From an uncultured virus (IMG/VR IMGVR_UViG_3300040751_001717) (taxonomy: Duplodnaviria; Heunggongvirae; Uroviricota; Caudoviricetes): a DNA stretch of 20,000 nucleotides. A program made the translations under genes and the position numbers. How positions within the stretch are numbered: the first letter of the stretch is position 1; each line of letters begins with the position of its first letter. The notes under the pieces are model-generated. The model did not search any database. It saw only the letters and a program-made list of their open reading frames with translations, and was not told the origin of the DNA. Below are positions 1-18,300 of the stretch, in pieces. The DNA lies in IMG/VR virus record IMGVR_UViG_3300040751_001717; one strand, written 5' to 3'.

Positions 1-1
1 A

Positions 2-3000
2 ACTGAAAAAGAAAAAGAGTGGTTTAATAAAACTGGGGCGAATTACGGTGAGTTTTTTAGCAAAGACAGCTGGACTGCACCTATTATGACTAGAGCTGCT
101 CGAAGAAAAGCAAGAATCGGTAAGGATAAAGTTACAATGGCCGATGAGGTTCATGCTGTAGTTGATCCTGTTTTAGCTACTGTTATGACTATACCAACAG
201 GAGCAGTTGCCGGAAATGTAGGTAGAGGACTTCTTAGTGGTTATCGTGCAGCTACACCAACCGTTCTAAACGCAGGAAATACTGTAGGTAATTTTATGAA
301 TGCCCCGCTTACTGTAGGGTCAACAACACTACCGGGAGTAACTGCAAATAACCTATTAGGTGCATATGGTGCTACAGATTTTGCATTGAACCGTGCTCCT
401 GCAATACCAGGTCAGGTTCAAAGAGGAGAGTATGGAGACGCAGCATTTAATGTAGGTATGGGTGCACTAGATCTTATGGGTCTTAAATATACCGGTGCTG
501 CTAATCAATTTCTTGATACAGATTTTGCTAGAGGGGTGAGCGATTTAACTAAATATAAAACGCTTTCTAATGAAAGAACTAATGCTCAAACATTAATTAA
601 CGACTCATATAGGGATATATCAAAAGCAGACGGAGCGATAGCTGATCTAAATACCGAGCTATACAAATTAACGATACCAACTACACGATCACTTAGAAAA
701 CAAAAATTATTTACTAATCAGTCTTGGGGAGAGGATTCTTACGTAGGTCGAAGATTGCAAGCTTTAGGATATTCAGGTAATACCATCTGGGATCCTAATA
801 GTACGGGATCTCGAATGGTTCCATTTCAGAATGGTCAGATTGTTCCAGGAAATAAAAAAGGATTTGAGCTTGTAACTACTGGTTCAAATGGACTTAATAC
901 AAGTGTAACTAATCAAGGTTCCATTATTGATTTTAACACAGGACGTACACTAAAATACAATTTTAATTTTCCAGGTGGTGCTCGTACTGCTATTAGACTT
1001 ACTCCTGACGGTAATGCGCGGATGAGCGAGATTCCTAGTGTAAGTAAGTTTACTCCACCTGAAGGTCTTAGCTCTACTGTCTCTGGAAACATAAACCTGA
1101 TAGAAAATCAAATACCTGGATTTAAAGTATTTGGTAGTTCTAGAGGTGTAGCAGATGCGGGTTTACCTCACGTTCCTGGTGATTATGATGGTATTATTAC
1201 GAAAGCAAATTATGATAAAATGGTTGCTGAGGGTAAATATCCTCTTACAGACGGTTCAGGATTTGCTAAAGTACATGAGGTTGATATAAACGGAAATCTA
1301 GAAAAAATAGATTTTAATGTAATTGAAGAAACTGCAGACGGTAAACCCACAGGAAAACTTGCAGAACAACTCTATAGAAATTTAGATCCCCAAGGATACT
1401 ATGAACAAGCAGCACGTGTTACAGCAGGTGAACAGAAAGTAGTAGATATACCCTATACGGCAGATGAATTAATTGAAAAGACAAATTGGTCAGGAAGAAC
1501 AATTGCAGATGCTTTTGAAACACCGTCAGCAGGGGCAAAAGCAAAACACATTAATAGACCAGATGTTTATATAGCATATGGTGATCCAGCTAAACTTCAA
1601 GAAGGTTTTGAAACATACGCTAAAAGTTTTTTAGGTGAAAATGCAAACCTTGGACCTAAGTTTTCTGCTGAACAACTTTCCAATGTAGAGGAAAATTTAG
1701 AGCTACTCAAATCTATGCAGTATCCCGGTGACATAAATGCTATTGCAAGTTCTCCGGAAAGAATGCAAGTAGCTCTTCAGGATTACTATATTAATAAAAC
1801 TACTTTAAGTAGAGGAATTGATCGAAACCGTTTAATCGGTGGGACTGATAGACAGAATATAGAGGATGCTCTTACAGAATGGAATGTAGACGCAGGGGGT
1901 GGTAATGCAAATGGAATGGGTTTAAATAATGTTCAGTTAGGTGATAGCGGATGGGGTGATATATATAGTCATAAACAGTTTTCTATACCTACAAATAATA
2001 ATTCACCAAAAGAATTTGTAGAGAGCATTGTAAACTACACTGATGGTACAGCTCCGCTTTCTACTGGAGAAGTTAAAATTATAAGGGATATTCTTGATAA
2101 GCATGGTATTCCGAGAAGAGATCAAACTGATCTTACAGAACTTACAATGAAAAATCTGCTGACTAGTTTACCTCAAAATAAAGCAACTGAGTCCGTACTT
2201 AATGATATTGCAGAAAGAACTGGACGTAGGTATTCTATTTATAATGAGTTTGGTGATTCTCAATATGCAGGTAGTTTTGGATCATTTAATAATGACGGTG
2301 ATATTTTAGTATACGGTAATCGATATGGTGACACAGGTTTAGTACCTACAGGTAAGGGTTTACAAACAAGACTTGATAACTACAATGTAAACTCAACCTC
2401 AAATGTTAATTTCAACCCGTACGTATATAATCCTAATTTAATAAAAGCAGATTGGTATAGAGCTAGTTCACCAGGAGCTTTTGATAAAATTACAAAGCGG
2501 GCTGAGTTAACTGGTATAAACGACCAACTTACCAGTGCTAATCTAGGGCCTTCACCATTTAAAGTACAAAGAATAAAAGGCTACATTTCGGAACGAGAAG
2601 CAATGAGAGATGCTTTAGTACAACGAGCTATAGACGCAAATAGTGATATATATAACATAACTAGGAGGCTTCAGAATGCTGAGAAGCAAGGAACTAATCT
2701 AGGTATAGGTGCTGGTGTCACAGGTGCAGGATATTTTACTTACAGGGGATTGAAAGATGGAACATCAGATAATAAAAAATACGGAGGAAAACTAATACCT
2801 AGATATAGTGAGTTACCTAAAGCACAAGATGGTAAATACTTACCACCTGCTGTAAGAGATATGTATCCTAAAGAGGATCCTATATACTATGATGGTATGC
2901 TAGCTGAAACTACAGTTACTGCTCCTAAATATGACGGTCCTCAAATACGCAGAGCTTTTCCTGGTGAAACAGATCCTGTAAATACAAACTTTGAATTTGC

Positions 3001-4681
3001 AGGCGTGGATAGAACAAGTGGTCTTAGTGCGTTAAGAGGTTTAGCTAAAGGAGTTAAAAAGATAGTAGGGCTTAAAGAACCTGCTAAAACCGTAATACAA
3101 CCTTACAGTAGAAAATTAGATCAAACTTTGTATGCACCTCAAAAAGTTTATGGTAGAGGTATGCCTAATACGGATGCTGAAATGAACTTACGCGGACAAT
3201 TGGTAGAACAATATAATGCTAGAAACAACGCATATCACACGGTTAATATAACAGATGACATTAGAAATAGTGAGTATTTACGTGAGCGTGCAAAAGTTTA
3301 TGGTTATAATCCAGACAGTGATAGAGATCTTGCATTGTTCTTAGGTACTTCTCCAGGAGGTGGCGGAAGAAGAACGGGGTATGAAAACTTATTACCTGAA
3401 GGATATGATATTTTATATTCAGGTAATAACCCAATTCAAACGTATAGTAGATATGGAGATTTTACAAATAATGCTACTCCATATACAACTAAGTTTAAGT
3501 TATTTAATGACAATACTTCAATGCTTTCAGATAGACAGTTATTTGAAAGAATTCAAGCTTTAGATGGAGTTAATACATACCGACCAGATCTTAGAATAAA
3601 AACATTTAATCAAGGAGATAATATTAATGATTTAGTTCAAGGACAGATTATTAACACTAATACAGTACATGTACCTGGATTAAATCAGACTAACATGATG
3701 GTAGGTAGAACTAATGTTCCTGTAAGAGAACCTATAGATATTAGATCTGGTAGAGAGATGAATGGTTGGCCTAATGCTTTTCAATTAGGTCAAGGAGCTA
3801 ACTTTAGTAATCCTTCAGATTATGACTTCTACTTTAAACAAAAAGGAGGATCGCTCCCCTCTTATCAAGATAAGGGACAAGTAACTCAAACGCGTAGTGA
3901 AAAGGTAGGAAGAAACGAAATACCTGAGAATAAAGATTTATTTAGCAAGCATGTAATGTATCCTGCTTTATTAGAAGGTGCTGCATTTATGGATTGGTAC
4001 GGACCTAAATTAAATGAAGCCGCAGGGGATATGACACGTTATGCAAAAGAGTATTTGTATTCAAATCCAAGTACAGCTGTACCAACAGCAATTGCTCACA
4101 GTAAAGCTAATGACTGGTTATTTGAAAATGTAAGACCAGTTGCTTATCCCACTCTTCTTACAGGTGCTCTTACAGTTGCTTCAGGAATGATGGGTAATAA
4201 TGCACCACCTGCTTTAGACGCTGATGGTAATTATACAGTAGATGAAGAAGCTTGGAGAAGAGCTTTAGGTCTAAAAACTGAACCTAAATATATTTTAGAG
4301 TCTCAATATAAACCAAGTACGGCAGAAGATCCGAATGCTAAGTATTATACGATTAGTCCTTCTGTATTAGACAGACAGAAACTTGTTCAGGAAGCTCAGG
4401 CTAGAAACATGCAAGTTGGAGATAAAGCTTATATGGAATCTTTAGCACCATACATTGTAGATGGGTTCATGTCTCAAAATGAGTTCAGCGAAATCGATCC
4501 TTTACAACGATTTAAAATGAGCGTTGGTGAAGACGATAAGGGAAGGTATTTATCTATCTATGATAAGTATGATTTCAGCGGACCAGCAAATGAGTTTATC
4601 ATGCCTTATGAGTTCTATGATAGAGTATACTATAAACGAGGAGGTAAGATCCCTCGCTATACTGGAAACCTTTACCGCTAA
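2..4681 (+). CDS. Large modular phage virion-associated (cargo/polyvalent-type) protein, 5'-partial, with at least three modules separated by xxxGG motifs, including a nucleotidyltransferase-like domain
   Basis: ORF track gives 86..4681 (1531 aa), but the same frame is open from position 2 (TEKEKEWFNKTGANYGEFFSKDSWTAPI-M), so the true start lies upstream. Ends in TAA. Contains FGS-x14-DYD...IDF and KKYGG/KQKGG/YKRGG motifs. Product is inferred. Confidence 0.85.
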   Translation, partial: TEKEKEWFNKTGANYGEFFSKDSWTAPIMTRAARRKARIGKDKVTMADEVHAVVDPVLATVMTIPTGAVAGNVGRGLLSGYRAATPTVLNAGNTVGNFMNAPLTVGSTTLPGVTANNLLGAYGATDFALNRAPAIPGQVQRGEYGDAAFNVGMGALDLMGLKYTGAANQFLDTDFARGVSDLTKYKTLSNERTNAQTLINDSYRDISKADGAIADLNTELYKLTIPTTRSLRKQKLFTNQSWGEDSYVGRRLQALGYSGNTIWDPNSTGSRMVPFQNGQIVPGNKKGFELVTTGSNGLNTSVTNQGSIIDFNTGRTLKYNFNFPGGARTAIRLTPDGNARMSEIPSVSKFTPPEGLSSTVSGNINLIENQIPGFKVFGSSRGVADAGLPHVPGDYDGIITKANYDKMVAEGKYPLTDGSGFAKVHEVDINGNLEKIDFNVIEETADGKPTGKLAEQLYRNLDPQGYYEQAARVTAGEQKVVDIPYTADELIEKTNWSGRTIADAFETPSAGAKAKHINRPDVYIAYGDPAKLQEGFETYAKSFLGENANLGPKFSAEQLSNVEENLELLKSMQYPGDINAIASSPERMQVALQDYYINKTTLSRGIDRNRLIGGTDRQNIEDALTEWNVDAGGGNANGMGLNNVQLGDSGWGDIYSHKQFSIPTNNNSPKEFVESIVNYTDGTAPLSTGEVKIIRDILDKHGIPRRDQTDLTELTMKNLLTSLPQNKATESVLNDIAERTGRRYSIYNEFGDSQYAGSFGSFNNDGDILVYGNRYGDTGLVPTGKGLQTRLDNYNVNSTSNVNFNPYVYNPNLIKADWYRASSPGAFDKITKRAELTGINDQLTSANLGPSPFKVQRIKGYISEREAMRDALVQRAIDANSDIYNITRRLQNAEKQGTNLGIGAGVTGAGYFTYRGLKDGTSDNKKYGGKLIPRYSELPKAQDGKYLPPAVRDMYPKEDPIYYDGMLAETTVTAPKYDGPQIRRAFPGETDPVNTNFEFAGVDRTSGLSALRGLAKGVKKIVGLKEPAKTVIQPYSRKLDQTLYAPQKVYGRGMPNTDAEMNLRGQLVEQYNARNNAYHTVNITDDIRNSEYLRERAKVYGYNPDSDRDLALFLGTSPGGGGRRTGYENLLPEGYDILYSGNNPIQTYSRYGDFTNNATPYTTKFKLFNDNTSMLSDRQLFERIQALDGVNTYRPDLRIKTFNQGDNINDLVQGQIINTNTVHVPGLNQTNMMVGRTNVPVREPIDIRSGREMNGWPNAFQLGQGANFSNPSDYDFYFKQKGGSLPSYQDKGQVTQTRSEKVGRNEIPENKDLFSKHVMYPALLEGAAFMDWYGPKLNEAAGDMTRYAKEYLYSNPSTAVPTAIAHSKANDWLFENVRPVAYPTLLTGALTVASGMMGNNAPPALDADGNYTVDEEAWRRALGLKTEPKYILESQYKPSTAEDPNAKYYTISPSVLDRQKLVQEAQARNMQVGDKAYMESLAPYIVDGFMSQNEFSEIDPLQRFKMSVGEDDKGRYLSIYDKYDFSGPANEFIMPYEFYDRVYYKRGGKIPRYTGNLYR
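1090..1335 (+). other. Pol-beta superfamily nucleotidyltransferase-like motif region within ORF1
   Basis: KVFGSSRGVADAGLPHVPGDYDGII (GS 1133-1138, DYD 1181-1189) fits the hG[GS]x(n)Dh[DE]h signature with a slightly long spacer. A candidate third carboxylate lies in EKIDFNVI (D at 1310-1312). Confidence 0.55.
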
Positions 4682-4691
4682 AAATGGGTAT

Positions 4692-4733
4692 TCTACAGGA
4701 TTTATTGTATATTAATATGTAGAGTGTATACTC
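4692..4733 (+). promoter_or_regulatory. Putative phage promoter/regulatory site upstream of ORF2
   Basis: TTTATTGTATATT (4701-4713) resembles TTTTATGTATATT upstream of ORF4. It is flanked by the inverted pair TCTACA (4692-4697) / TGTAGA (4718-4723) and followed by the short palindrome GAGT-GTAT-ACTC (4722-4733). Confidence 0.45.
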
Positions 4734-4751
4734 AGATAATACTACCACCGA

Positions 4752-6338
4752 ATGTCTAAAAACATACCTACAAACAAGAAACTTTATGCTCGTGTAAAAG
4801 CAGAAGCTAAACGGAAGTTCGATAGATGGCCTTCTGCTTATGGTTCTGCATGGTTAGTTAAAGAGTATAAAAAGAGAGGTGGAGGTTATCGTAAAGCTGA
4901 ACAGGGTATGGAAGTACCTGATTACACAATTCCTTATATGGCAGCAGGTGGTAAAATGCCGCAGTGGTTAGCAGACGCAAGATTTGAAGCTGCAGGCAAT
5001 GAAGACAAGAAACAAGAATATGGTTATCACTTTGGTGGTATCGTAACTCCAGCAGAACAAATGCAGATGCTATCTGAAGAACAAGCATTTGTTAATCCGT
5101 TTACAGAATCTATGATGTACGGCGGAGAAGAGTACATGTATGGAGGAGAAGAAGAATATAAAAAAGGTGGTGGTATACCTCAACGCTATAAAAATAAAGG
5201 CTTCACTAAAGTTGGTGCTAAGAAAAAGTCTACACGTCCTGGTAAAAAATGGATGGTGCTTGCTAAGAAAGGTGACAAGTATAAAATTGTACACGGTGGT
5301 GATAGCAACATGAAAGACTTTAAGCAACACGGTTCAGCAAAAAGAAAGAAAAGATTCTGGGATCGAATGGGTGGAAGAGATTCTGCTAAAGCTAAAGATC
5401 CGTTCAGTCCGTTATACTGGCACAAGAGATTTGGTACCTGGGCTGAAGGTGGTGAAACGTTTAATGAAGATTCACAAGACTTCTATAGATCTGGTGGAGA
5501 AAACTGGATTAAAGAAGCTACTGATAGAATGGAAGCGAAGGGTACAGTAGGTGCTTTCACAAAACAAGCAAAGCGTGCTGGTTATGATTCTGTTCAAGCT
5601 TTTGCAAATAAAGTATTAAACAATGAGGATGACTTTACTAAGACAACGGTTAAGCGTGCTCAGTTTGCTAAAAACATGAAGGATATTGCAACTGCAAAGT
5701 TTGGAATGCAACTACCTAAGTTTCAAGGATTTGATATGTCTCAGGTACCCACTACTTCAGGTATGGGTTCTGTGTACATGCAAGATCAAGCTCTTGAAGC
5801 TGAGCTAAGTCAGTATGCACCTCCAGCTCCATTATCGATGATCAATCTACCTTCAAAGGGTATAGGTAATGTTTTTACCCCAGAATCGCCTCAGTTAATT
5901 CCTACAGAAACATTAATTGCAAAACAGCAAGCGCAATATGCAAATGCTGAAGAAGCAGCAGAAGAAACTCCGCAATCTACAGCAATGATAAACTGGGTCA
6001 ACATTGCAGGTAATGCTGCACTAGGCGCATTGGGTGGTATCGGTAGAGGAATGGAAGCTCGTAGAAGACAGGATGAAATTGCAGGAATGACTTCTGCAGA
6101 TAATGTGTTTGCTATGAACCCTCAAGGTTTACCAGGAGACAGAGGTGATTATGATGTTAACACCGGTTTCTTCCGTCCTGATGAAATGGGATTCAAAAAT
6201 GATGCACGATACTGGAACCCTTATGTTACTCAAGCTAGTACCTTTAGAGCTAAAGAAGGTGGTCAGATGGGTATGGTAGATGAACAATTATTACAAGAAC
6301 TTATTGCAGCTGGCGCTGATATTGAAATCTTAGACTAA
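4752..6338 (+). CDS. Phage virion protein / polyprotein of small basic domains separated by xxxGG motifs (528 aa)
   Basis: ORF track. Three distinct compact domains, two very Lys/Arg-rich (PTNKKLYARVKAEAKRKFDRWPSAYGS...; KKSTRPGKKWMV...HGG...DFKQH...SPLYW; NWIK...KGTVGAFTKQAKRAG...KRAQFAKN), nine xxxGG motifs, and a C-terminal EQLLQELIAAGADIEILD helix. Confidence 0.9.
   Translation: MSKNIPTNKKLYARVKAEAKRKFDRWPSAYGSAWLVKEYKKRGGGYRKAEQGMEVPDYTIPYMAAGGKMPQWLADARFEAAGNEDKKQEYGYHFGGIVTPAEQMQMLSEEQAFVNPFTESMMYGGEEYMYGGEEEYKKGGGIPQRYKNKGFTKVGAKKKSTRPGKKWMVLAKKGDKYKIVHGGDSNMKDFKQHGSAKRKKRFWDRMGGRDSAKAKDPFSPLYWHKRFGTWAEGGETFNEDSQDFYRSGGENWIKEATDRMEAKGTVGAFTKQAKRAGYDSVQAFANKVLNNEDDFTKTTVKRAQFAKNMKDIATAKFGMQLPKFQGFDMSQVPTTSGMGSVYMQDQALEAELSQYAPPAPLSMINLPSKGIGNVFTPESPQLIPTETLIAKQQAQYANAEEAAEETPQSTAMINWVNIAGNAALGALGGIGRGMEARRRQDEIAGMTSADNVFAMNPQGLPGDRGDYDVNTGFFRPDEMGFKNDARYWNPYVTQASTFRAKEGGQMGMVDEQLLQELIAAGADIEILD
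5115..5174 (+). repeat. Short in-frame tandem repeat encoding MYGGEEY-MYGGEEE-YKKGGG
   Basis: 21-nt units ATGTACGGCGGAGAAGAGTAC (5115-5135) and ATGTATGGAGGAGAAGAAGAA (5136-5156), followed by TATAAAAAAGGTGGTGGT. Confidence 0.75.
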
Positions 6339-9300
6339 TGAAAAAAGTTAAAATCAATAAGCTACCTAAAGGTTATCATAGAATGCCTGACGGTACTATT
6401 ATGAGAGATTCCGATCACAAGAAGTATGGTGGGAATACTCTATCACAAGGTAGTGGTCCTTTTAATCTAGAAGCAGAAGGAGGAGAAACTATTGTTACTG
6501 ATAAAACAGGTAATGGTATACCTGAACTTTATAAAATTGTTGGTCCGAGACACAGTCAGGGTGGAGTTAAAATGAATGAGAGCGCCGGCTCATTTATTTA
6601 TTCTGATACACCTAAGATGAAATTAGGTAAAGAGTTAAATAAGTTCTTTGGTAAGTCTGATAAGAAAGCTTATACTCCTGCTGAGTTGTCTAAGCAATAC
6701 CTAGATATGAATGAAGACAAGCTAACTCTAATGGACGAGAATGCAGATAGATATGCATTAGCTTCAGCTGAGATGAACTTGTTTAATAAAACATATAAGC
6801 TTGGTGGTCTTGCAATGGCGCAAGAAGCTAAGAAGAATTTTGAAGACGGTATTCCGCAGATTGCAAATCTTTACGCATCTATGAATGGTATACCTACTGG
6901 AGATTCTACAATGCCTGCGGGTATGCAAACTGCAAAGTATGGTAAACAAGTAGGTTATCCTAAGTACCAAGATAATGGTCAGGTTCAAGCTGATACAACA
7001 GGTTTAAGTGCTTTTTTAGAGCAAGCAAATGCAGTTAATGATACTATACAAATACCCCAAGTTGATGTTACAGCTATGGACTGGAGCAGGCAACCAAAGG
7101 TGGGGGATAGATATTACGTTAATTCAGAGCCTGTAAGTATAAGTAAAATTAAACCAGATCGTTGGTATGATTATATATCTCCAAACTGGCTGTCAGATCC
7201 GGGCGGTATATACTTTAATGACGAAAGCGGAACTGAGTTTTATCTTCCTGTTGATGAGTTTAATAGTGTAAAACAAGGAAAACCTCAAGAAAAATACGGC
7301 AGAGATGATGATTCAGACTGGAGAGCTTTTGCAGGTTTTAAAGGTCAACAAGATCCTTATACAAAATATATATTTTCTAGAAGTAGTACGGATGCTGAAG
7401 GCAACCGCTACCTTCCAGAATACGAAATTGGAGATACCGGTATTAAACAAGGAACTATCGTTGAAGGACCGGATGGTAAATTTATGGTACAAGATCCTTT
7501 TGCTATGCCGAAGGAAGCATTCTATATGCCTAATTGGTTAACTGAAGCCGTAACTCTTGGTTCATATTCTCCTAAAGCTAGCGGATATAAAATTGATCCA
7601 GAAACCGGAGAGCAATCAGACGAAATGATAGCACTAGACATAGATAAGATGGCTAGGTTATATAAGCAGGGTTTGATGAGTATTGATGATAAGCTAATGG
7701 GTACGTTAACAGAAGAGCAGCAAGAAGAGCTCACTCAAGCTATTAACGAGCAATCTGGTAGCGAACAATCTGCTATTGGTAATGCTACCGGAAGTAACAG
7801 GTACGGAGGTCCTGTAAAAAAACAAGGCGGTGGTCAACTAACATTAGAAGAAGCAAAAAATCAAGGGACACTTGTTAAAGAGGAAAATGGTTTTGCTGCT
7901 TATAATGTATCAGGTAAAGTATACGTTTATAAGGATGGTGTTTTAGTTTCTGTTGATGGGCAAACTATTTCTCAAAATGTTGCTACAACTCCTCCACCGG
8001 CTAATAATACTCCACCAACACCACCAGCTAATAACACTGCACCAAGTGCACCCAGCACACCGTCTACACCTTCCGGAGGTTCTGGAAGCTCTAGTGGTTC
8101 TATGAACAACAGTGCAGTTGATGAGGATTTAGATGCTCAATTGAGAGCTGCCGGTGTTATTATTAATGACGTAGGTATTGGTGAAACAAGATATGATGAT
8201 GTTCAGCGATCTCAAGGTCAAGGTAGATATGGAGATGCTAGTAAAAATGAAGGTGGGTTCCAACAAGTTTGGAGCACAGAAGATGCATTGAACAGCTATC
8301 CTGAAACACAATCTCTTTTCGATTCTTTACCTAATTACGGAACTGGTGAACAAAATCCAGAAGTTGCAAAATTCCAGAGATGGTTTAATGAGGTATATTT
8401 AAATACTGTAGCAGATGCAATGGCAACAGATGCTCAAGAGGCGGGCAGAGAATTTGATAGAGATGGTGTTTATAATATACTTGTAGAATCAAGAGGCTTT
8501 AATGAAACAGCTCCTGGTCAAGGTTATGATGGTCTGTGGGGTACGTTTACTTCATCTAGAAGACCGATTAGCTGGGAGTTTGTACCTATGGAAATTCCAC
8601 CAGATGAGATTCCACCAGATGAAATCCCTCCAGCTGAAATACCATCAGATAAAATACCACCTAAAGTTCCTCCATTTATTCAAGATAGAATGCAGCTTGC
8701 AGGTCTTGCTGCTATTAGAGGAAGAAATGAAATGTTACCAGCGTGGGCACCTAGAGTGGAAACACCTTTGATGAAAGGACCATTCCTAGATCCTACTAAC
8801 GTTAATGCTAATATTCAGGCTTCTGCATCTCAAGCAATTCAAGGATCTAATATGTTTGCAGGCAGCCCTTCTATTGGAAGAGCTACAGGTATGGGTATTC
8901 AAGCTAAAGCTTCAGAACAAATTGCTAAGAACATAGCAGATGTAGAAAACAAAAATGTAGCTTTGGCCGGTAACTACGCATCTCAAAACAGAGACGCATT
9001 GATGCGAGGTAATGCAGCTAATGCTCAACTAGCAGCTGGAGAGTATGCAGCAAACAATCAAGCGCGTGATATATTTAATATGAGAAATGCACAGCTTGAT
9101 GCTGCTAATACAGATGCATGGAAAAACTTGATGACAAACTGGGCAAACGCTAGAAATATTAGTGCACTTACAGATCCTTTCTATTTAGATACAGATATGG
9201 GTGGGGTATATCAGTTAACACCAGGATATAGAGCAGATCTTAATAGACCTTCTGGTACTCCTGGAATGAATTATGCTGAATTTGCTTCTGATCCTACATT

Positions 9301-9526
9301 ACAAGGACTAAGTGAAGAAAACAAGCAAAAGCTTTTCTTAGAGCGCTATGGTAATAAACCTCAACTGTCTTATAATTATGGTACTACACCTCAAGCGCAG
9401 ATGCTTCAAAATGCTACAGCATTTATGCCTATGCCTTACATGGGATATCAAGTAGGACCTATGGGACAGCAAGTACAAATGCAAAAAAGAGGTGGGACTA
9501 ACAAAAGAAAAAGGAGAGGTTACTAA
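6338..9526 (+). CDS. Phage virion/cargo protein (1062 aa) with N-terminal EAEGGE...GPRHSQGGV domain
   Basis: ORF track. TAATG overlap with the ORF2 stop. The EAEGGE (6470-6487) / GPRHSQGGV (6542-6568) / FIYSD / TPAELSK motif set resembles internal virion proteins of crAss-like phages (recalled, not searched). Has Pro-rich linkers and an Ala/Asn/Gln-rich helical C-terminal part. Confidence 0.88.
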   Translation: MKKVKINKLPKGYHRMPDGTIMRDSDHKKYGGNTLSQGSGPFNLEAEGGETIVTDKTGNGIPELYKIVGPRHSQGGVKMNESAGSFIYSDTPKMKLGKELNKFFGKSDKKAYTPAELSKQYLDMNEDKLTLMDENADRYALASAEMNLFNKTYKLGGLAMAQEAKKNFEDGIPQIANLYASMNGIPTGDSTMPAGMQTAKYGKQVGYPKYQDNGQVQADTTGLSAFLEQANAVNDTIQIPQVDVTAMDWSRQPKVGDRYYVNSEPVSISKIKPDRWYDYISPNWLSDPGGIYFNDESGTEFYLPVDEFNSVKQGKPQEKYGRDDDSDWRAFAGFKGQQDPYTKYIFSRSSTDAEGNRYLPEYEIGDTGIKQGTIVEGPDGKFMVQDPFAMPKEAFYMPNWLTEAVTLGSYSPKASGYKIDPETGEQSDEMIALDIDKMARLYKQGLMSIDDKLMGTLTEEQQEELTQAINEQSGSEQSAIGNATGSNRYGGPVKKQGGGQLTLEEAKNQGTLVKEENGFAAYNVSGKVYVYKDGVLVSVDGQTISQNVATTPPPANNTPPTPPANNTAPSAPSTPSTPSGGSGSSSGSMNNSAVDEDLDAQLRAAGVIINDVGIGETRYDDVQRSQGQGRYGDASKNEGGFQQVWSTEDALNSYPETQSLFDSLPNYGTGEQNPEVAKFQRWFNEVYLNTVADAMATDAQEAGREFDRDGVYNILVESRGFNETAPGQGYDGLWGTFTSSRRPISWEFVPMEIPPDEIPPDEIPPAEIPSDKIPPKVPPFIQDRMQLAGLAAIRGRNEMLPAWAPRVETPLMKGPFLDPTNVNANIQASASQAIQGSNMFAGSPSIGRATGMGIQAKASEQIAKNIADVENKNVALAGNYASQNRDALMRGNAANAQLAAGEYAANNQARDIFNMRNAQLDAANTDAWKNLMTNWANARNISALTDPFYLDTDMGGVYQLTPGYRADLNRPSGTPGMNYAEFASDPTLQGLSEENKQKLFLERYGNKPQLSYNYGTTPQAQMLQNATAFMPMPYMGYQVGPMGQQVQMQKRGGTNKRKRRGY
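7985..8101 (+). repeat. Low-complexity Pro/Thr/Ser/Gly linker in ORF3
   Basis: Encodes TTPPPANNTPPTPPANNTAPSAPSTPSTPSGGSGSSSGS, with duplicated PPANNT and PST units. Confidence 0.75.
8591..8674 (+). repeat. 15-bp degenerate in-frame tandem repeat (EIPPD x5) in ORF3
   Basis: GAAATTCCACCAGAT / GAGATTCCACCAGAT / GAAATCCCTCCAGCT / GAAATACCATCAGAT / AAAATACCACCTAAA, then GTTCCTCCA. Confidence 0.9.
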
Positions 9527-9567
9527 ACCTTAAGGGTTTACTAAACCTTGAAAATTTTATGTATATT
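9518..9567 (+). promoter_or_regulatory. Nested direct/inverted repeat plus promoter-like motif upstream of ORF4
   Basis: TTACTAAACCTT occurs exactly at 9520-9531 and 9538-9549. Inverted pairs TAAACC-N5-GGTTTA (9524-9540) and GGTTTA-C-TAAACC (9535-9547) are present, then AAAATTTT (9551-9558) and TTTTATGTATATT (9555-9567). Confidence 0.55.
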
Positions 9568-9581
9568 GTTGATATATAATT

Positions 9582-12320
9582 ATGAAGAAGTACCAACAAG
9601 GTGGAGGTTTAATTGCAGTACCGCAGGCGTTCCGACCTGACTTTGATTTTTTATACAAAGTAGGTAAGGAAAGACAGACACGTTATAATGCTGCTGAAAG
9701 AGAGCTTGGAGGTATATATTCTTCATTGCTGAACTCTCCATTAACACACGAGGATAATAATCAGAGAAGGGATACTTGGTTTAAATCAAGTCAAGCTGCT
9801 CTTGATCAGATTACAGGATTAGATCTTAGTTTACAGAGTAACCTTAGATCTGCTAAAGATGTATTTGATCCGATTATCGAGGATAAGTATATTGCTCACG
9901 ATATGGCATGGTCTAAAAGACTATCGCAAGAAGCTCGTAAAGCAGAAATGTACAAAACATCTGATGATCCTGCTGTTAGATCTAAAGCGTGGACATATGG
10001 TGACGCCTATTTAAATATTCAGAGAGAGCGTTTTGCTGGGTCATCATTAGATGAAACTCTTAATATGGGAGCACCTAGATATGTAAGTCAGGTGGACATC
10101 CAAGGATTAGCTAGTGAAACGGTTAAAAAATTCTTTGGAGACGAAGCTCTTCTTTCAACTACTGTTAATGGAGGTTGGGTTGTAAAAACTAAGAACGGTC
10201 CTGTTGTATATGATCAAATGAATGCATTAATACATAATGCTATACAAAATGATCCTGCGGTAAGGGATATGTACAGAGTGATGTACGAAGTAAACGAAGA
10301 TCAGTTTATTAAAAGTTCTGGGTTTGCTTCTGCAGATGAAGCTCGTTTAGCATTTGCTGAACAAGTTATTTCAGATAATGAAGAAGTAGTAATCAGAGAC
10401 TTCTATGGTAAACAAAGAGCTATACAAGATCTTACTGAAGGAATTAACTTAAAGAGAAGTGAGTTTAAGAAGACAGGCGTTGTACCCGGTTCAAGTAAAC
10501 ATAGAGAAGTTTTAGATCAGCTTGCTATTCTTTCAGGTTTAAAGAACTCTCCACTAAGTAGTGAAGATGAACGAGCAATCGGAACCCCTGCTGAATCTAT
10601 AATGGACATGCGTAATAAAGCGCTTTCTGTTTTTGCAGGAGCATCTTCTATTAAGGATGCTCAGAATGCAGCTAGACTTACAGCAAGTAAAGGTTACTCT
10701 GTTGATGTTGATGAAAATGAATACGGACTAATTAGTGCCCGTGCAAAAGCAGAGGCTGATCTTGCAAAACTCAAATCACAGCTTAGTGTTTGGGAAGCTT
10801 GGAATAAACCACAAACAAGTGGTACCAAAGGTAAAGGCACAGGTACAAATCTTACTGGAGCAGATATTGGTTTACCTGGTGGTGTAGGTGTTGAAACAGC
10901 TCCTGCGGGAGGAACTCCTGTTGTAGAAATGAGTGCAGGACAAATGAATGAGGAAGCAATCTCTACCTATACTAATCAAGTATTAGGGGATATGACCACA
11001 TTTATTCAAAAGTATTCTATTGCCGCTGGAAAAAATACTGTAGTACTACCGGATGGTAATCAAATTGCATTTAGAGATTTACCTGCCCTAATGAATACAC
11101 GAGAGGGTAGAGATCTTATCATATCTACCTATGGTGATATGCAAAAAAAATCAAGAACTTTATTTAAAGACAACGTAGAGCTAGCAACATTAAGAGCAAG
11201 TCTCGAAGTTAACGGAGCTCAGCTTAGTCAGATTACTGATGAGGCAAATGCAGCAGACAGAAATATTGCACAGTCTTGGTTAAGTATAAACCGAGGTGCA
11301 CTTACTAAAGCACATCAGCAACTATTTATCAATCCTAACACAGGTAGACCGGTATCTCTTGATAGCTACATCACGATGTATGCTCAAGCAAACTATGAAA
11401 CCGTTGAAGATGCTGTAGATGATGCAACAGACGAGTATGCAGAATTGATGGAGCGCTACACGGAGTTCTATAACAGAAACGCTACTTACTCTGCGTATAA
11501 TTCATTTAGTGGTGGAGACGGTACTACAGGTGGTTTAGGTACAGGGTCTGGCAGTTTCCCTGCGTTTACTACTACATTTAGTGGAAGCAACTTAAACCCT
11601 GAGTCTGTTAACATGCTCAAAGATTTGAATATCAGCTTAACTGCAGCAGATAGATTTGGTGGTCAAGTGATTTATCAAGCAGGTGGTCTAGCTGAAGTTG
11701 GTGAAAACAGTGCTGAATTACAACAGCTATACCAAAGAATTATGGCTGACGTTATTTCAAGACAAGGTGATTCTGATGCTCCTGTGTTTACAATGAAGTA
11801 TCAATCCGTTGCTGGAGGTGATGGTTCTAAAGCAGGTTATCAAATTACACTTGATTCTGAGTATCTAAAAAAATGGACGGACGGTGATGATGATGCTGCT
11901 AAGCTTCTCGCTAATAGCAACATGCAAGATCTCACTTTCTCCATTGTATTTGATAAAGACTACGATCGTAGCAACTACCGTTACACTAATCAAAGAGTTG
12001 ATGGTGTTCAATCACAACTAGCAAGCAGTGGTGATGGTAATCTTTATTATGAAGGTCCTTATGGTTCATCAGTAAGATTTACCCAGATGGCGGATGGTAG
12101 CACTAGAGTTATGACTCGATTTGGTGCACTTGATCCTAAAACAGGTGAACTTACTTTTGTTGAAGGAAGTAGAATGATTATGGGCGGTCCTGGTATATTT
12201 GAATCAGAACTTGCTGACTTTAATAGTAAAGTCACTCAAATAGCTAAACAAAACGAAGCACTACAAAAAACCATCAATGATCAGTTAGGTACTAAGAACG
12301 TTGATGAAGTAATGCCATAA
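9582..12320 (+). CDS. Phage virion/cargo (putative ejection) protein, 912 aa
   Basis: ORF track. Starts MKKYQQGGG, followed by a predicted helical N-terminal region (FRPDFDFLY...YSSLLNSPLT...GLDLSLQSN) and Gly-rich linkers. It lies between other large virion-type genes. No enzymatic motif was recognised. Confidence 0.88.
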   Translation: MKKYQQGGGLIAVPQAFRPDFDFLYKVGKERQTRYNAAERELGGIYSSLLNSPLTHEDNNQRRDTWFKSSQAALDQITGLDLSLQSNLRSAKDVFDPIIEDKYIAHDMAWSKRLSQEARKAEMYKTSDDPAVRSKAWTYGDAYLNIQRERFAGSSLDETLNMGAPRYVSQVDIQGLASETVKKFFGDEALLSTTVNGGWVVKTKNGPVVYDQMNALIHNAIQNDPAVRDMYRVMYEVNEDQFIKSSGFASADEARLAFAEQVISDNEEVVIRDFYGKQRAIQDLTEGINLKRSEFKKTGVVPGSSKHREVLDQLAILSGLKNSPLSSEDERAIGTPAESIMDMRNKALSVFAGASSIKDAQNAARLTASKGYSVDVDENEYGLISARAKAEADLAKLKSQLSVWEAWNKPQTSGTKGKGTGTNLTGADIGLPGGVGVETAPAGGTPVVEMSAGQMNEEAISTYTNQVLGDMTTFIQKYSIAAGKNTVVLPDGNQIAFRDLPALMNTREGRDLIISTYGDMQKKSRTLFKDNVELATLRASLEVNGAQLSQITDEANAADRNIAQSWLSINRGALTKAHQQLFINPNTGRPVSLDSYITMYAQANYETVEDAVDDATDEYAELMERYTEFYNRNATYSAYNSFSGGDGTTGGLGTGSGSFPAFTTTFSGSNLNPESVNMLKDLNISLTAADRFGGQVIYQAGGLAEVGENSAELQQLYQRIMADVISRQGDSDAPVFTMKYQSVAGGDGSKAGYQITLDSEYLKKWTDGDDDAAKLLANSNMQDLTFSIVFDKDYDRSNYRYTNQRVDGVQSQLASSGDGNLYYEGPYGSSVRFTQMADGSTRVMTRFGALDPKTGELTFVEGSRMIMGGPGIFESELADFNSKVTQIAKQNEALQKTINDQLGTKNVDEVMP

Positions 12321-15300: not shown

Positions 15301-18300
15301 AATACGCACAGACAGAGGATCTGATTACTGTAGAGGAGCTTTCAGAAGTTACTCCTTTATTTCAGTCTCTTATTGAAAACTTATATAAGCAAGAGGTTGC
15401 AGATCGTCAGGCAAGAAACCTGGAACCGATTAGCTATAATGAATTTATAGGTAGCGCCGTAGCACAGAGAGCTATTACAGCTATTACGCTTATTGATGAA
15501 TTATATAGAGCGGATAATGAGCAGTCTGCTATTTCCCCAGGAGAGTGGTTACAGAAGAACAGATCTAGAGAAGATGTCTATCAGATTGTTAATGATAACG
15601 GATTTAAACCAGAAGAGCTTTTAATTACAGGAATCGACCCTAATGTATTTGCACTGGAAGAAATGCCTGAAGGGTTTACTCTAGAAACAACTAAAGGAGA
15701 GAAAGGAATCTTTGTAAGATCTACTTCAGCATTAGATACTGAGACCGGTGAAGAGAATACCGTCTTCGAATTAGTAGATAACAAGAATAATGTTATACCT
15801 GGTACAGAACCATCGCTAACACTTGATGAAGCACTTAAGAAAAGAAAAGAGTTAGCTAAGAAAAGAAAAGATCAAGCTGCAGAATTTGAGTTTGATGGTA
15901 AATCATTTAGACAAGGTGATGTTGTAAATGACGGTAGAGGTAATGACTACATTGTTGTAAACTCTGCTGAAGAAATGAATAAGGCTAAGAGTGAAGAAGG
16001 TACAGTTTCTATCACTCTTCGTAATAAGCAAACAGGCGCTTTAGTAAAAAGAGCTAGTTCAACAAATATATTCCCCGGTTCATTTGCTTCGTTTAAATCT
16101 GAGCTTGCTTACATCCAAGATGTAAACAACTACAATATGATGTATGGTTTTATCTCTGACGTAGATAGAACCGAAGAAGCAATTGAAAAATACGGTTCTG
16201 CTTCAAATGCGGCAACAGCTAGAATGAAACAACGTCTTTCAGAACTATCTGAAGAAGAGTTGAATTCTAGAATTACTATAAGAATAACTCAGAACGATCC
16301 GGCTAAAATTAAGAAACCTTCCAAGCTTAGGATTAACGGAAAAGAAAATCCTAATATAGAAGAGCGTGGAGAAAAGTACGCTATTCTTATACTTCTTGAT
16401 GGTCAAGAGTTAGGTTTTGTAAGAAGCGCTCAGAACTTTCAGTTCATTGGTAATGATGGAAAGAAAGTACCTATTTACTCTAAGAACAACGGTACTTGGA
16501 CTTTTGGTATCAGCTTTGATTTATTCAACAGAGTATTTAATCTACCAGGACAAGATATGCTTAAGGCATATAGTAGATTCCAACTTGCGATGTCTCAAGC
16601 TTTAAACATTCAGACGAATGTAAGCAAGATAATGCAAGGCAAAACAGAAGTAGAGCTATCAAATGAAGAGACACTTGAGCTATTTGGTAGAATAAAACTT
16701 ACTGAAGGTAGTTATGATTTTGCAAAAGGTGATGAGCGAGCTACATATGATGAGTTAGCATCTAAGACTGTTAACGGTGGTACATATTTAATTGACTATA
16801 GACCTGTTACAGAAGGTGGTGTATATAAGGTTGCTCCACGTATTCTTACGGATTTAACAGGTGAAGCATTGGACGAAGCAGAAGCTAAGATTAATGCAGC
16901 TATAGAAAATATGAATGGTCACCCATCTAACATGGGTCGTTATATCCTAGCGGTAGAAATTAATGGTAAGATTAAGTTTGTACCTTTTGTTTCTCAACCA
17001 CTTACTGAAGTAGAAGTAGGTGAAGTTCTTGCAGACCTTCAATCTATTTCAAATGATGCGGCAGAAAATAATAGTGAGGGTACAGATCTTACCTACACTG
17101 ATGCTGCAAACCAATCTGTTCTTTATGATAAGCTTTATCATGCACATGGAACAGGACTTTACTCTAGAATGCGAATCACTGCAGACGGCAGTTTCGTAGT
17201 AGAGGTTGCTGACAACCCTGGTTTTTCAGATCCTAAGATATTACTAAAGAAAGATGCGGGAAGTGAGATAGGTAATGTAAGCTCTCTAATAGAAGAGATG
17301 AATGCAGAAGTACCAAACCTCCCTAAAAAGTTTAGAGGAATTAAGTTCTCTAACGATATGTTTAGAGCTTCGCTTCCGCAAGACTTTACAGTAGAGCAAT
17401 TTAAAACTGCACCAGTAGTTGCTACTGTATCTGCAGACATTGTTAAGAGTAACAATAAAGCTATCGTAATTCCGGCTAAGAAAGTTAAAGCTGAAACAAT
17501 GCCAGGTACAGGTGAAAATACACCTCAAGGTACAGGTAATGATTTGTTAGGCGAAACAGAAACAACAGAAACCGAAGAGACAACTGAAGCTCCGGGTGCT
17601 GCAGATCTTATTGCCGGTCTTACTGTAGATCAAATTCCAGCTCCTTCAGAAGAAGCTAAGTCTGAGAACCAAGCATTGTTTGAAAAACGCAATGAATTAC
17701 AAGAGCAACTTAAAGCTAAGAGAAAATCTAAGACGGATGCTCTAGTAACAATGGGGTATTCTAGAACAGCTGCAAGTAAGCAAGCTGATCAAGACCCTGA
17801 TGTATTAGCACTACAAGATCAACTTAATAAAGTAAAAGCTCAGATTATCAGTAGAGCTAATAAGGTTGTACCATTAGGGGATCGTAAGTTTACAGAGAAA
17901 GATGTTGAAGACATTGAAGCGTTTAAAGCTTGGGTAAATAAAAATTTACCTTCGTCTGTTACGGTTGAGGTTATAGATACTCTTATAGATAATCTATACA
18001 ATGGTCACGTTACAGTAGGTCAGTTTGTTATGAAGCTGATGGGTATTAGTAATCAGATTCAAGGTTCAATCTTAGTTAATCCTTTATCGCCAGATAAATA
18101 CCACGAAGCGTTCCACGCTGTATTTAGAATGTTCTTAACAGATGAGGAGATTCAGAAACACCTTGATCTTGCTAAAGCTGAAGTAAAAGCAAATCTTAAA
18201 AAACAAAACAAAACTCTTGACCAGGCAATAGCAGAGTTAAAAGCTAGTTCTGAAATTTATCAGGATATGAGCTATGCTCAGCTTGAAGAACGTCTGTATG

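Follow-up and report, generated by a model that had tools for sequence, protein, structure and literature searches.

The closest described counterpart of the proteins analysed here is the C1 cargo protein of phage crAss001, gp45 (PDB 7QOG chain M, PF25725), whose gene likewise follows that of the muzzle. In the particle gp45 is resolved at residues 214–245, located in the tail, and at residues 425–552, located in the portal, with 12 copies of each (PMC10172136). LC-MS/MS does detect gp45 in virions (PMC10172136). Bayfield et al. propose that one gp45 chain bridges the head to the tail through the portal (PMC10172136), and in the accepted ejection model C1 is one chain extending across capsid and tail. 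In its accessible text gp45 is taken to be a single, unprocessed chain; cleavage is not mentioned, nor is the motif described below. Searches of the accessible literature outside subscription papers, including the available text of the review PMC10136315, brought up no account of the motif or of cleavage of C1.

The window is the whole stretch of DNA analysed (20,000 nucleotides); it lies at the end of a linear virus record that measures 75.7 kb and is ~63% complete. Among the genes of the record are those for a terminase, portal, capsid (PF23898, E = 5e-28), ring proteins and muzzle of the crAss type (further profile matches are PF25702, PF24228, phrog_6547, phrog_6681 and phrog_37948), arranged in the conserved order. 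Judged from its genes and their order, the genome is that of a crAss-like (Crassvirales-like) phage. Relatives of its capsid gene are present in an estimated ~1800 IMG/VR stretches, of which the best 80 are near 80% identical; the named relatives are remote (24–28% identity). ORF1, ORF2 and ORF3 directly follow the muzzle gene, which is the slot of the cargo gene gp45 (C1) in crAss001, and ORF4 and ORF5 occupy the positions of gp46 and gp47. The C1 locus is that between muzzle and C2, and ORF1–3 lie there; by position, they are members of the crassvirus C1 (gp45) cargo locus. They are probably present in the particle, as gp45 is in the accessible account of crAss001 (PMC10172136), and as is suggested by the annotation of phi17:2 gp41 and phi14:2 gp69 and gp70 as virion proteins. 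Together they comprise 3362 aa, compared with 842 for gp45. Related loci were collected using the C-terminus of the muzzle as query, giving 74, or 46 after removal of redundancy; the N-termini of ORF3 and ORF4 retrieved no loci, and tblastn with ORF3 against the named phages gave no match.

All of the features are on the plus strand. ORF1 (1772 aa) is the first cargo gene after the muzzle. It begins at window position −637 (genome position 55099) and occupies 1..4681 of the window. Its N-terminal module is common to phi17:2 gp41 (aa 15–79, E = 1e-18), followed by half of DUF5872 and then by large unannotated modules; nothing in the large modules of ORF1 and ORF3 was above the Pfam cut-off. The equivalent of ORF1 in the closest relative fetched carries LysM and SLT domains. 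The sequence xxxGG occurs in ORF1 as KKYGG (2774), KQKGG (3836) and YKRGG (4631), and the part lying outside the window has two further GG copies and a second bipartite copy. These copies form what are termed here seams. Those at 2774..2833 and 3836..3877 are bipartite, the xxxGG copy of the first being followed 12 codons on by a single-Gly copy, and the final seam (4631..4645) leaves an 11-residue basic tail.

ORF2 (528 aa, 4752..6338) is formed of small modules strung between nine GG copies, KKRGG (4869), MAAGG (4938), YHFGG (5025), MMYGG, YMYGG and YKKGG (5112–5171), WAEGG (5439), YRSGG (5484) and AKEGG (6249). A basic module corresponding to the N-terminal half of DUF5872 (4767..4898, E = 8e-10) ends at the seam at 4869, and a basic DUF5754 module (5223..5369, E = 4e-7) lies between the seams at 5157 and 5439. 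The small module at 5502..5672 is similar to residues 382–420 of crAss001 gp45 (E = 8e-13) and also exists as a stand-alone family (phrog_20603); it is flanked by two motifs both in gp45 and in ORF2. ORF2 terminates with its final seam and a 24-residue acidic tail (6249..6335). ORF3 (1062 aa, 6338..9526), the C1/gp45-type protein, starts with a basic leader (6338..6433) that ends at the seam KKYGG (6419), and then continues as a folded domain resembling the portal-bound domain of gp45 (6443..6907). A tandem seam follows at 7796..7834 (NRYGG at 7796 and KQGGG at 7820), and the final seam, QKRGG (9482..9496), leaves a basic tail of nine residues. This ending, a motif and then a short basic tail, is also found in crAss001 gp45 and phi17:2 gp41. 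ORF4 (912 aa, 9582..12320), the C2/gp46-position protein, has one N-terminal copy, at 9591.

The original prediction had counted 17 xxxGG copies and had put the last ones 11 (ORF1), 24 (ORF2) and 9 (ORF3) residues before the C-terminus; every copy and all three distances are confirmed. It held that the motif punctuates four adjacent proteins. This stands for ORF1–3, but the single copy of ORF4 is within chance, being reached in 62 of 300 shuffles, so that the punctuation concerns three proteins.

The motif was defined from GG sites only, after an unconstrained EM motif search had strayed into low-complexity, Gln-rich sequence and been set aside. A two-class model was trained on 1032 GG sites of relatives, with the three closest loci left out. 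The informative position is three before the first glycine (M.23, Y.16, K.15, F.12, A.08), and the next position prefers Q, K or A. The register is bulky-[A/Q/K]-x-G-(G), in which the second glycine is dispensable; of the GG motif with an upstream residue preference that had been proposed, the context is real but the second glycine is often replaced. Single-Gly copies of the form P-K/S-x-Q-x-G number 29 in the cargo proteins versus none in the muzzle or upstream genes. The predicted bipartite form is a minority that exceeds expectation, at 41 of 531 sites in relatives compared with 13.3 in random placements (maximum 21). The copies in Suoliviridae C1 proteins have low scores and often one glycine; by eye they occur after the leader and flank the portal domain on both sides. 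Glycine codons at the motif vary about like those of other glycines, and this synonymous variation indicates a peptide signal and rules out an origin as a DNA repeat.

There are 1120 GG runs in the muzzle-to-C2 genes of the relatives, with an observed/expected ratio of 1.55 compared with 1.06–1.23 in the flanking gene classes, and their context is clear only at the three upstream positions. Scored against the held-out profile, 12 of the 17 copies reach at least 2 bits and two more at least 1; the copies at 5025, 5484 and 7796 are below 1 bit, so that five fall under the 2-bit threshold. The enrichment over a composition-matched background that had been suggested is found: ORF1–3 have 12 hits among 33 GG runs, compared with 1.31 ± 1.11 (maximum 5) in 300 shuffles. 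One of these 12 (ORF3 residue 75, outside the original 17) is a structural element within the fold of the C1 domain. ORF4 has one profile hit, which is not significant, ORF5 has none, and the 45 other ORFs of the genome show no enrichment (2 hits, 3.65 expected). Conservation in homologues is likewise upheld, as the same register recurs at the C1 locus in crassviruses from culture and from the gut. In eight named phages (crAss001, Lbo-JY46, phi17:2, phi14:2, csAssE-Sib, cr6_1, cr118_1 and cr55_1) the 13 C1-locus proteins have 20 sites versus 2.5 expected, while 21 neighbouring proteins have 4 versus 4.8 expected. crAss001 gp45 itself has seven copies, one of them preceding its basic C-terminal tail. 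From these comparisons the motif is conserved and confined to the cargo locus, and is crassvirus-wide in the families tested (Steigviridae and Suoliviridae, with the epsilon group).

The sites are located at the borders of modules and at the ends of proteins, as had been proposed. Among 122 cargo proteins, 274 of 649 internal alignment ends fall within 10 aa of a site, compared with 103 ± 10 under shifting. When motifs and decoys are masked, the figure is 230 of 554 versus 87; decoys, placed >20 residues from motifs, gave 54 versus 80, and non-motif GG 35 versus 38 expected. Sites near the two ends occur in 61 and 58 of the 122 proteins, with 29 and 26 expected. Two relatives of crAss001 are without two of the gp45 modules and a third is without one, the joins being at the motif (available supplement of PMC6235969). 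Phage phi14:2 divides the C1 elements, in another order, between two punctuated proteins: gp70 has the portal domain, and gp69 has the hydrophobic and C-terminal parts. A single continuous chain is therefore not required. By their sequences, ORF1–3 are strings of swappable modules joined by a conserved peptide.

The first 220 residues of ORF3 were modelled with AlphaFold, giving a confident core at 36–190 (pLDDT >90) flanked by the motifs in linkers with pLDDT <50, in agreement with the expected location of motifs at domain boundaries. Of 48,161 solved chains, the one that the model matches best is 7qog_M (gp45 residues 425–548; 91 residues aligned, rmsd 4.3, with a modest Z of 5.4). ORF3 residue 31, the first glycine of the first motif, aligns with residue 425, the first of 7qog_M. 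Comparison of profiles for ORF3 and the gp45 domain supports the match (hhalign 87%, E = 4e-6), and the atlas places the ORF3 domain in the PF25725 cluster (0.94); a direct search with PF25725, Foldseek, and a profile against PDB sequences all missed the likeness. ORF3 is thus modelled as a C1/gp45-type protein with a distant match to the portal-bound domain. Locus, fold and module evidence agree with the original view of modular proteins of virion-cargo type.

The acidic 24-residue tail of ORF2 and the basic-strand leader of ORF3 are each set off by a seam, and are predicted to form an end-to-end clasp. In relatives the leader follows in 36 of 40 genes with the acidic tail compared with 4 of 59 without it, for patterns drawn after seeing examples and genomes that are not independent. 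The acidic tail is also internal in five proteins where there is no leader.

The structure and peptides of crAss001 gp45 bear indirectly on cutting. The two resolved pieces each lie inside one inter-motif segment and in different virion compartments, and none of the four gp45 peptides named in the accessible text of PMC10172136 crosses a motif. Residue 425 is the alanine of A-F-G-G, and the model runs through G427–G428 into W429. With an Asn at the bulky position the site departs from the consensus; from A425 onward it is ordered and not cut. The piece that begins there interdigitates with SH3-like loops of the portal. Since gp45 is modelled from A425 across the glycines, a cut after or between them is excluded at that site, while a cut before Ala425 would give exactly the observed start of the model.

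The MALDI peak lists of 13 crAss001 virion bands in the available part of PMC6235969 were re-matched after removal of trypsin autolysis and low-resolution peaks. The bands correspond to gp44 with the ring proteins, gp47/gp50, gp49, gp20, gp26/gp22, gp22/gp25, gp25, gp23, gp32, gp36, gp29 and possibly gp46 (one peak); full-length gp45 (90.9 kDa) was matched to none of the 13. In bands 5–9, containing proteins of 77–97 kDa, 2 of 16 Arg-ending gp45 peptides were matched, one of which is also explained by gp23. The portal, equally present in 12 copies, gave 7 of 13 (Fisher p 0.04 compared with gp45), and five proteins pooled gave 48 of 69. Neither gp45 fragments nor a cut end were found in the 13 bands; of the three non-trypsin peaks of the 15 kDa band two match gp29 and none gp45. 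The 26 kDa 12-copy ring proteins appeared only in the top bands and not at their own size. Excision was limited to visible bands, and gp45 may thus have escaped detection on other grounds. The missing full-length signal fits cutting, as indirect evidence from a distant relative of the present phage.

The likeliest reading, to which we give an even chance, is that the seam peptide is a maturation cut site, cleaved upstream of the glycines, so that the modules of ORF1–3 are released separately. Precursors would reach the prohead via the portal-binding C1 domain, the upstream proteins being clipped on by the pair of acidic tail and basic leader. A protease would then cut just upstream of the [A/Q/K]-x-G-G part rather than after Gly-Gly. 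Cutting would remove the basic leaders and tails and free small basic, probably DNA-neutralising modules, together with pieces of a membrane channel and with enzymes, for instance the LysM-SLT module of the close relative. If any module between two seams were loaded and released, the locus would tolerate constant swapping of modules. The wider proposal, that crassviruses make C1 cargo as true polyproteins from which a particle-borne zincin, cutting a universal seam, releases modules loaded via the portal-binding domain or clasp, is put forward tentatively, as somewhat short of probable.

To our knowledge no maturation protease has been described for crassviruses. The Ulp1-type protease originally suggested finds no support, Peptidase_C48 (PF02902) being found in 0 of 5 relatives with a positive control; PF00770 (adenain) was also found in 0 of 5, where the control was silent. 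There is no match to prohead protease families among 33 proteins of this ~63% complete genome, and no maturation protease among 110 proteins of two relatives (58/84 and 52/190 scanned by Pfam). In the same Pfam scan the only metallopeptidase is a putative one, DUF2201, in a replication block. The gp33-like gene after the capsid was considered as a protease candidate, for which its model gave no support, Foldseek giving no match at E ≤ 0.001. VIA matches its residues 181–336 to the C-terminal domain of RecA (Z 9.6) and to helical domains, with no protease among the matches (residues 1–180 were barely sampled), so that the C-terminal half of this conserved protein looks DNA-binding-like. Structure comparisons gave no support to the invariant Glu, His and Ser of the C1 domain as a protease site.

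An HExxH motif is present in the zincin-like region of ORF5 (17850..18557), the gp47-position protein that is cut by the end of the contig, and, as a motif only, in the equivalents from crAss001, G001–G003, JY46 and phi14:2. Used as query, the region found only two related loci. HExxH is absent from the polymerase-block proteins examined in phi17:2 and csAssE-Sib, both of which carry the seam motif. crAss-like phages carry an MPTase-type domain in the polymerase block, and this zincin has been proposed to act in polymerase activation or wall digestion (accessible text of bioRxiv 2020.03.07.982082); zincins in general have been proposed to process polyvalent proteins (PMC5512222, accessible text). 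The particle-borne HExxH zincin of the ORF5/gp47 block is the best candidate for an in-particle protease; alternatively, a host protease may cut.

The failure of these searches to find a maturation protease favours the strongest alternative, that the motif remains uncut and is a multivalent loading tag, binding to the wing of the portal, to the scaffold or to the inside of the capsid wall and so drawing its carriers into the prohead. It is consistent too with the gp45 site seen by cryo-EM, which is ordered where the portal-bound piece begins, and with the small Lys-rich genes bearing dense motif arrays in the head modules of 15 of 25 relatives (24 genes, 79 sites, 4453 aa). The head module of the present genome has no such genes, and the arrays would be explained equally well by avid binding and by cleavage into basic peptides. 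The known cargo proteins gp46, gp47, gp49 and gp50 are largely without the motif (0, 1, 0 and 0 scored sites), which weakens the idea of a general capsid-loading tag that had been advanced with the motif. Moreover, loading would not need tags at both borders of each module, and leaves the missing full-length gp45 signal in the available bands unexplained. We regard this alternative as a serious one, though unlikely.

It is still less likely that the seam is a passive, flexible product of module shuffling, in which small Met-x-x-Gly-Gly genes were fused and the peptide is recognised by nothing; the equally doubtful extension is that the flexible joint helps the chain to unfold and pass the tail. 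Methionine is indeed commonest at the bulky position, several modules of the ORF1–3 type are separate genes in other phages, and the sites are predicted to be disordered. Yet the same position-specific register persists across marine and freshwater clades and the gut Steigviridae, Suoliviridae and epsilon group, although the flanks are unalignable, the synonymous codon variation is not that of a patch of DNA homology, and the tandem arrays of the small basic proteins have no linker role.

Structural polyproteins with glycine-containing cleavage sites are processed in ASFV (pp220 and pp62, by pS273R), by the adenovirus protease and by poxvirus I7L. The adenain rule has its bulky residue at another spacing than the seam motif. 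Most sites have two glycines and a bulky residue upstream, but a phage cysteine protease cutting after Gly-Gly in this way is highly improbable, since the second glycine is often replaced (there are single-Gly sites in cargo proteins and in Suoliviridae C1), the available gp45 model passes through both glycines, and no Peptidase_C48 was found in the five relatives. The original prediction of polyprotein processing by the phage keeps indirect support, from the signal of full-length gp45 missing in the accessible crAss001 bands, but not in its ASFV/adenain mode.

Cutting at the seams would change the accepted model of ejection, the published head-to-tail C1 chain becoming a set of separate cleavage products. 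It would also explain the free swapping of cell-wall enzymes, peptidases and small basic proteins at this locus. Crassviruses, including the most abundant phages of the gut, would then possess a system of plug-in cassettes for the effectors they inject, and the seam would offer a brief sequence code by which foreign proteins could be loaded into phage particles.

Compared with crAss001 gp45, the present locus has the matching ORF3 domain, one ORF2 module in common and copies of the motif; unlike gp45, its C1 elements are distributed over three genes with many extra modules and the pair of tail and leader. Such processing would not be general to podophages, as phiRIO-1 shows none (PMC4819975). 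Lambda provides a lead in the tape measure protein gpH, an ejected protein that is cut near its C-terminus to gpH* by an enzyme not named in the accessible text of PMC12617516. F-A-T-G-G at 733–737 of gpH has a seam profile score of 3.2; the likeness is only a lead because the cut site is unmapped according to that text, and, unlike ORF1–3, gpH is a siphophage tail protein. The polyvalent proteins with a zincin-like MPTase are also multi-module and packaged in the head, with proposed HExxH processing; the accessible text of PMC5512222 describes no common seam peptide, and here the candidate zincin is in a different gene from most of the sites.

The present system is compared finally with the head maturation of the large myophages. 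The sites of the prohead proteases of T4 and phiKZ end in Glu. SPN3US sites do so too, and T4 gp21, phiKZ gp175 and SPN3US gp245 act at a short degenerate motif, often multiple, to remove the leaders and tails of head proteins; the propeptides of T4 also target proteins into the head (accessible text of PMC10052503). In those phages a recognisable prohead protease also processes the capsid or portal, whereas none was found here among the proteins scanned, the seam motif is not Glu-ended, and the capsid and portal are without the motif pattern. Most sites of the present locus, unlike those of T4 and phiKZ, are internal, so that cutting at them would yield many mature products. In its proposed working the seam system nevertheless resembles T4/phiKZ head maturation as there described, of which it is here taken as an analogue.

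The DUF5872 module is divided in two halves between the first two genes of the C1 cargo locus, ORF1 (L003:15099–15540) and ORF2 (window 4767–4898). In many relatives the C-terminal half lies at the end of the first gene and the N-terminal half at the start of the next. At the following junction ORF2 ends with an acidic C-terminal mini-domain and ORF3 begins with a basic N-terminal strand (window 6264–6367). Across loci L089–L162 such a strand opens the next gene at 36 of 40 junctions that have the acidic mini-domain, compared with 4 of 59 that lack it. The ORF2–ORF3 pair is a candidate for a putative end-to-end clasp.

ORF4, the protein in the C2 (gp46) position, carries the full seam motif, bulky-[A/Q/K]-x-G-(G), in its N-terminal stretch (window 9582–9608), and 11/22 C2-type proteins of relatives have an N-terminal aromatic-x-x-Gly at the matching site. 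In polymerase-block proteins of other loci (phi14:2, L187 gp65–gp67; L188 WOZ57301) cysteines are present at the facing ends.

Of 25 relatives, 15 also have clusters of small lysine-rich genes with dense motif arrays, located between the capsid or gp33-like gene and the genes for the ring proteins (among them L037:15360–16556, L053:12971–13855, L074:13404–13733 and L077:12962–13890); none of eight such genes tested had a PHROG match. The conserved gp33-like protein, encoded after the capsid gene (L001:15300–16310), is predicted to carry a SAP/CARD-like helical domain followed, at the C-terminus, by a RecA C-terminal-like domain (Z 9.6). Its first 180 residues include many invariant positions and gave no fold match.

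A motif-bounded HExxH module is near-identical in phi14:2 (L187 gp70) and phi17:2 (L007 gp42), and this likeness in sequence suggests that modules may be exchanged between distant phages. In crAss001, adjoining genes gp76–gp77 (L163:28395–30793) are annotated as ThiF-like and metalloprotease; no such pair was seen among the relatives scanned.

Lambda gpH (L164:1043–3604) contains F-A-T-G-G at 733–737 and Y-A-T-G-G at 778–782, both within the region removed during tail assembly; PMC12617516 describes the cut site as not known. Within the C1 domain of ORF3, residues 45–90 (window 6470–6607) include invariant Glu45, Glu47, Glu50, His72 and Ser89; the order of the His and Glu-Gly-Glu elements is reversed with respect to the crAss001 cargo protein gp45.
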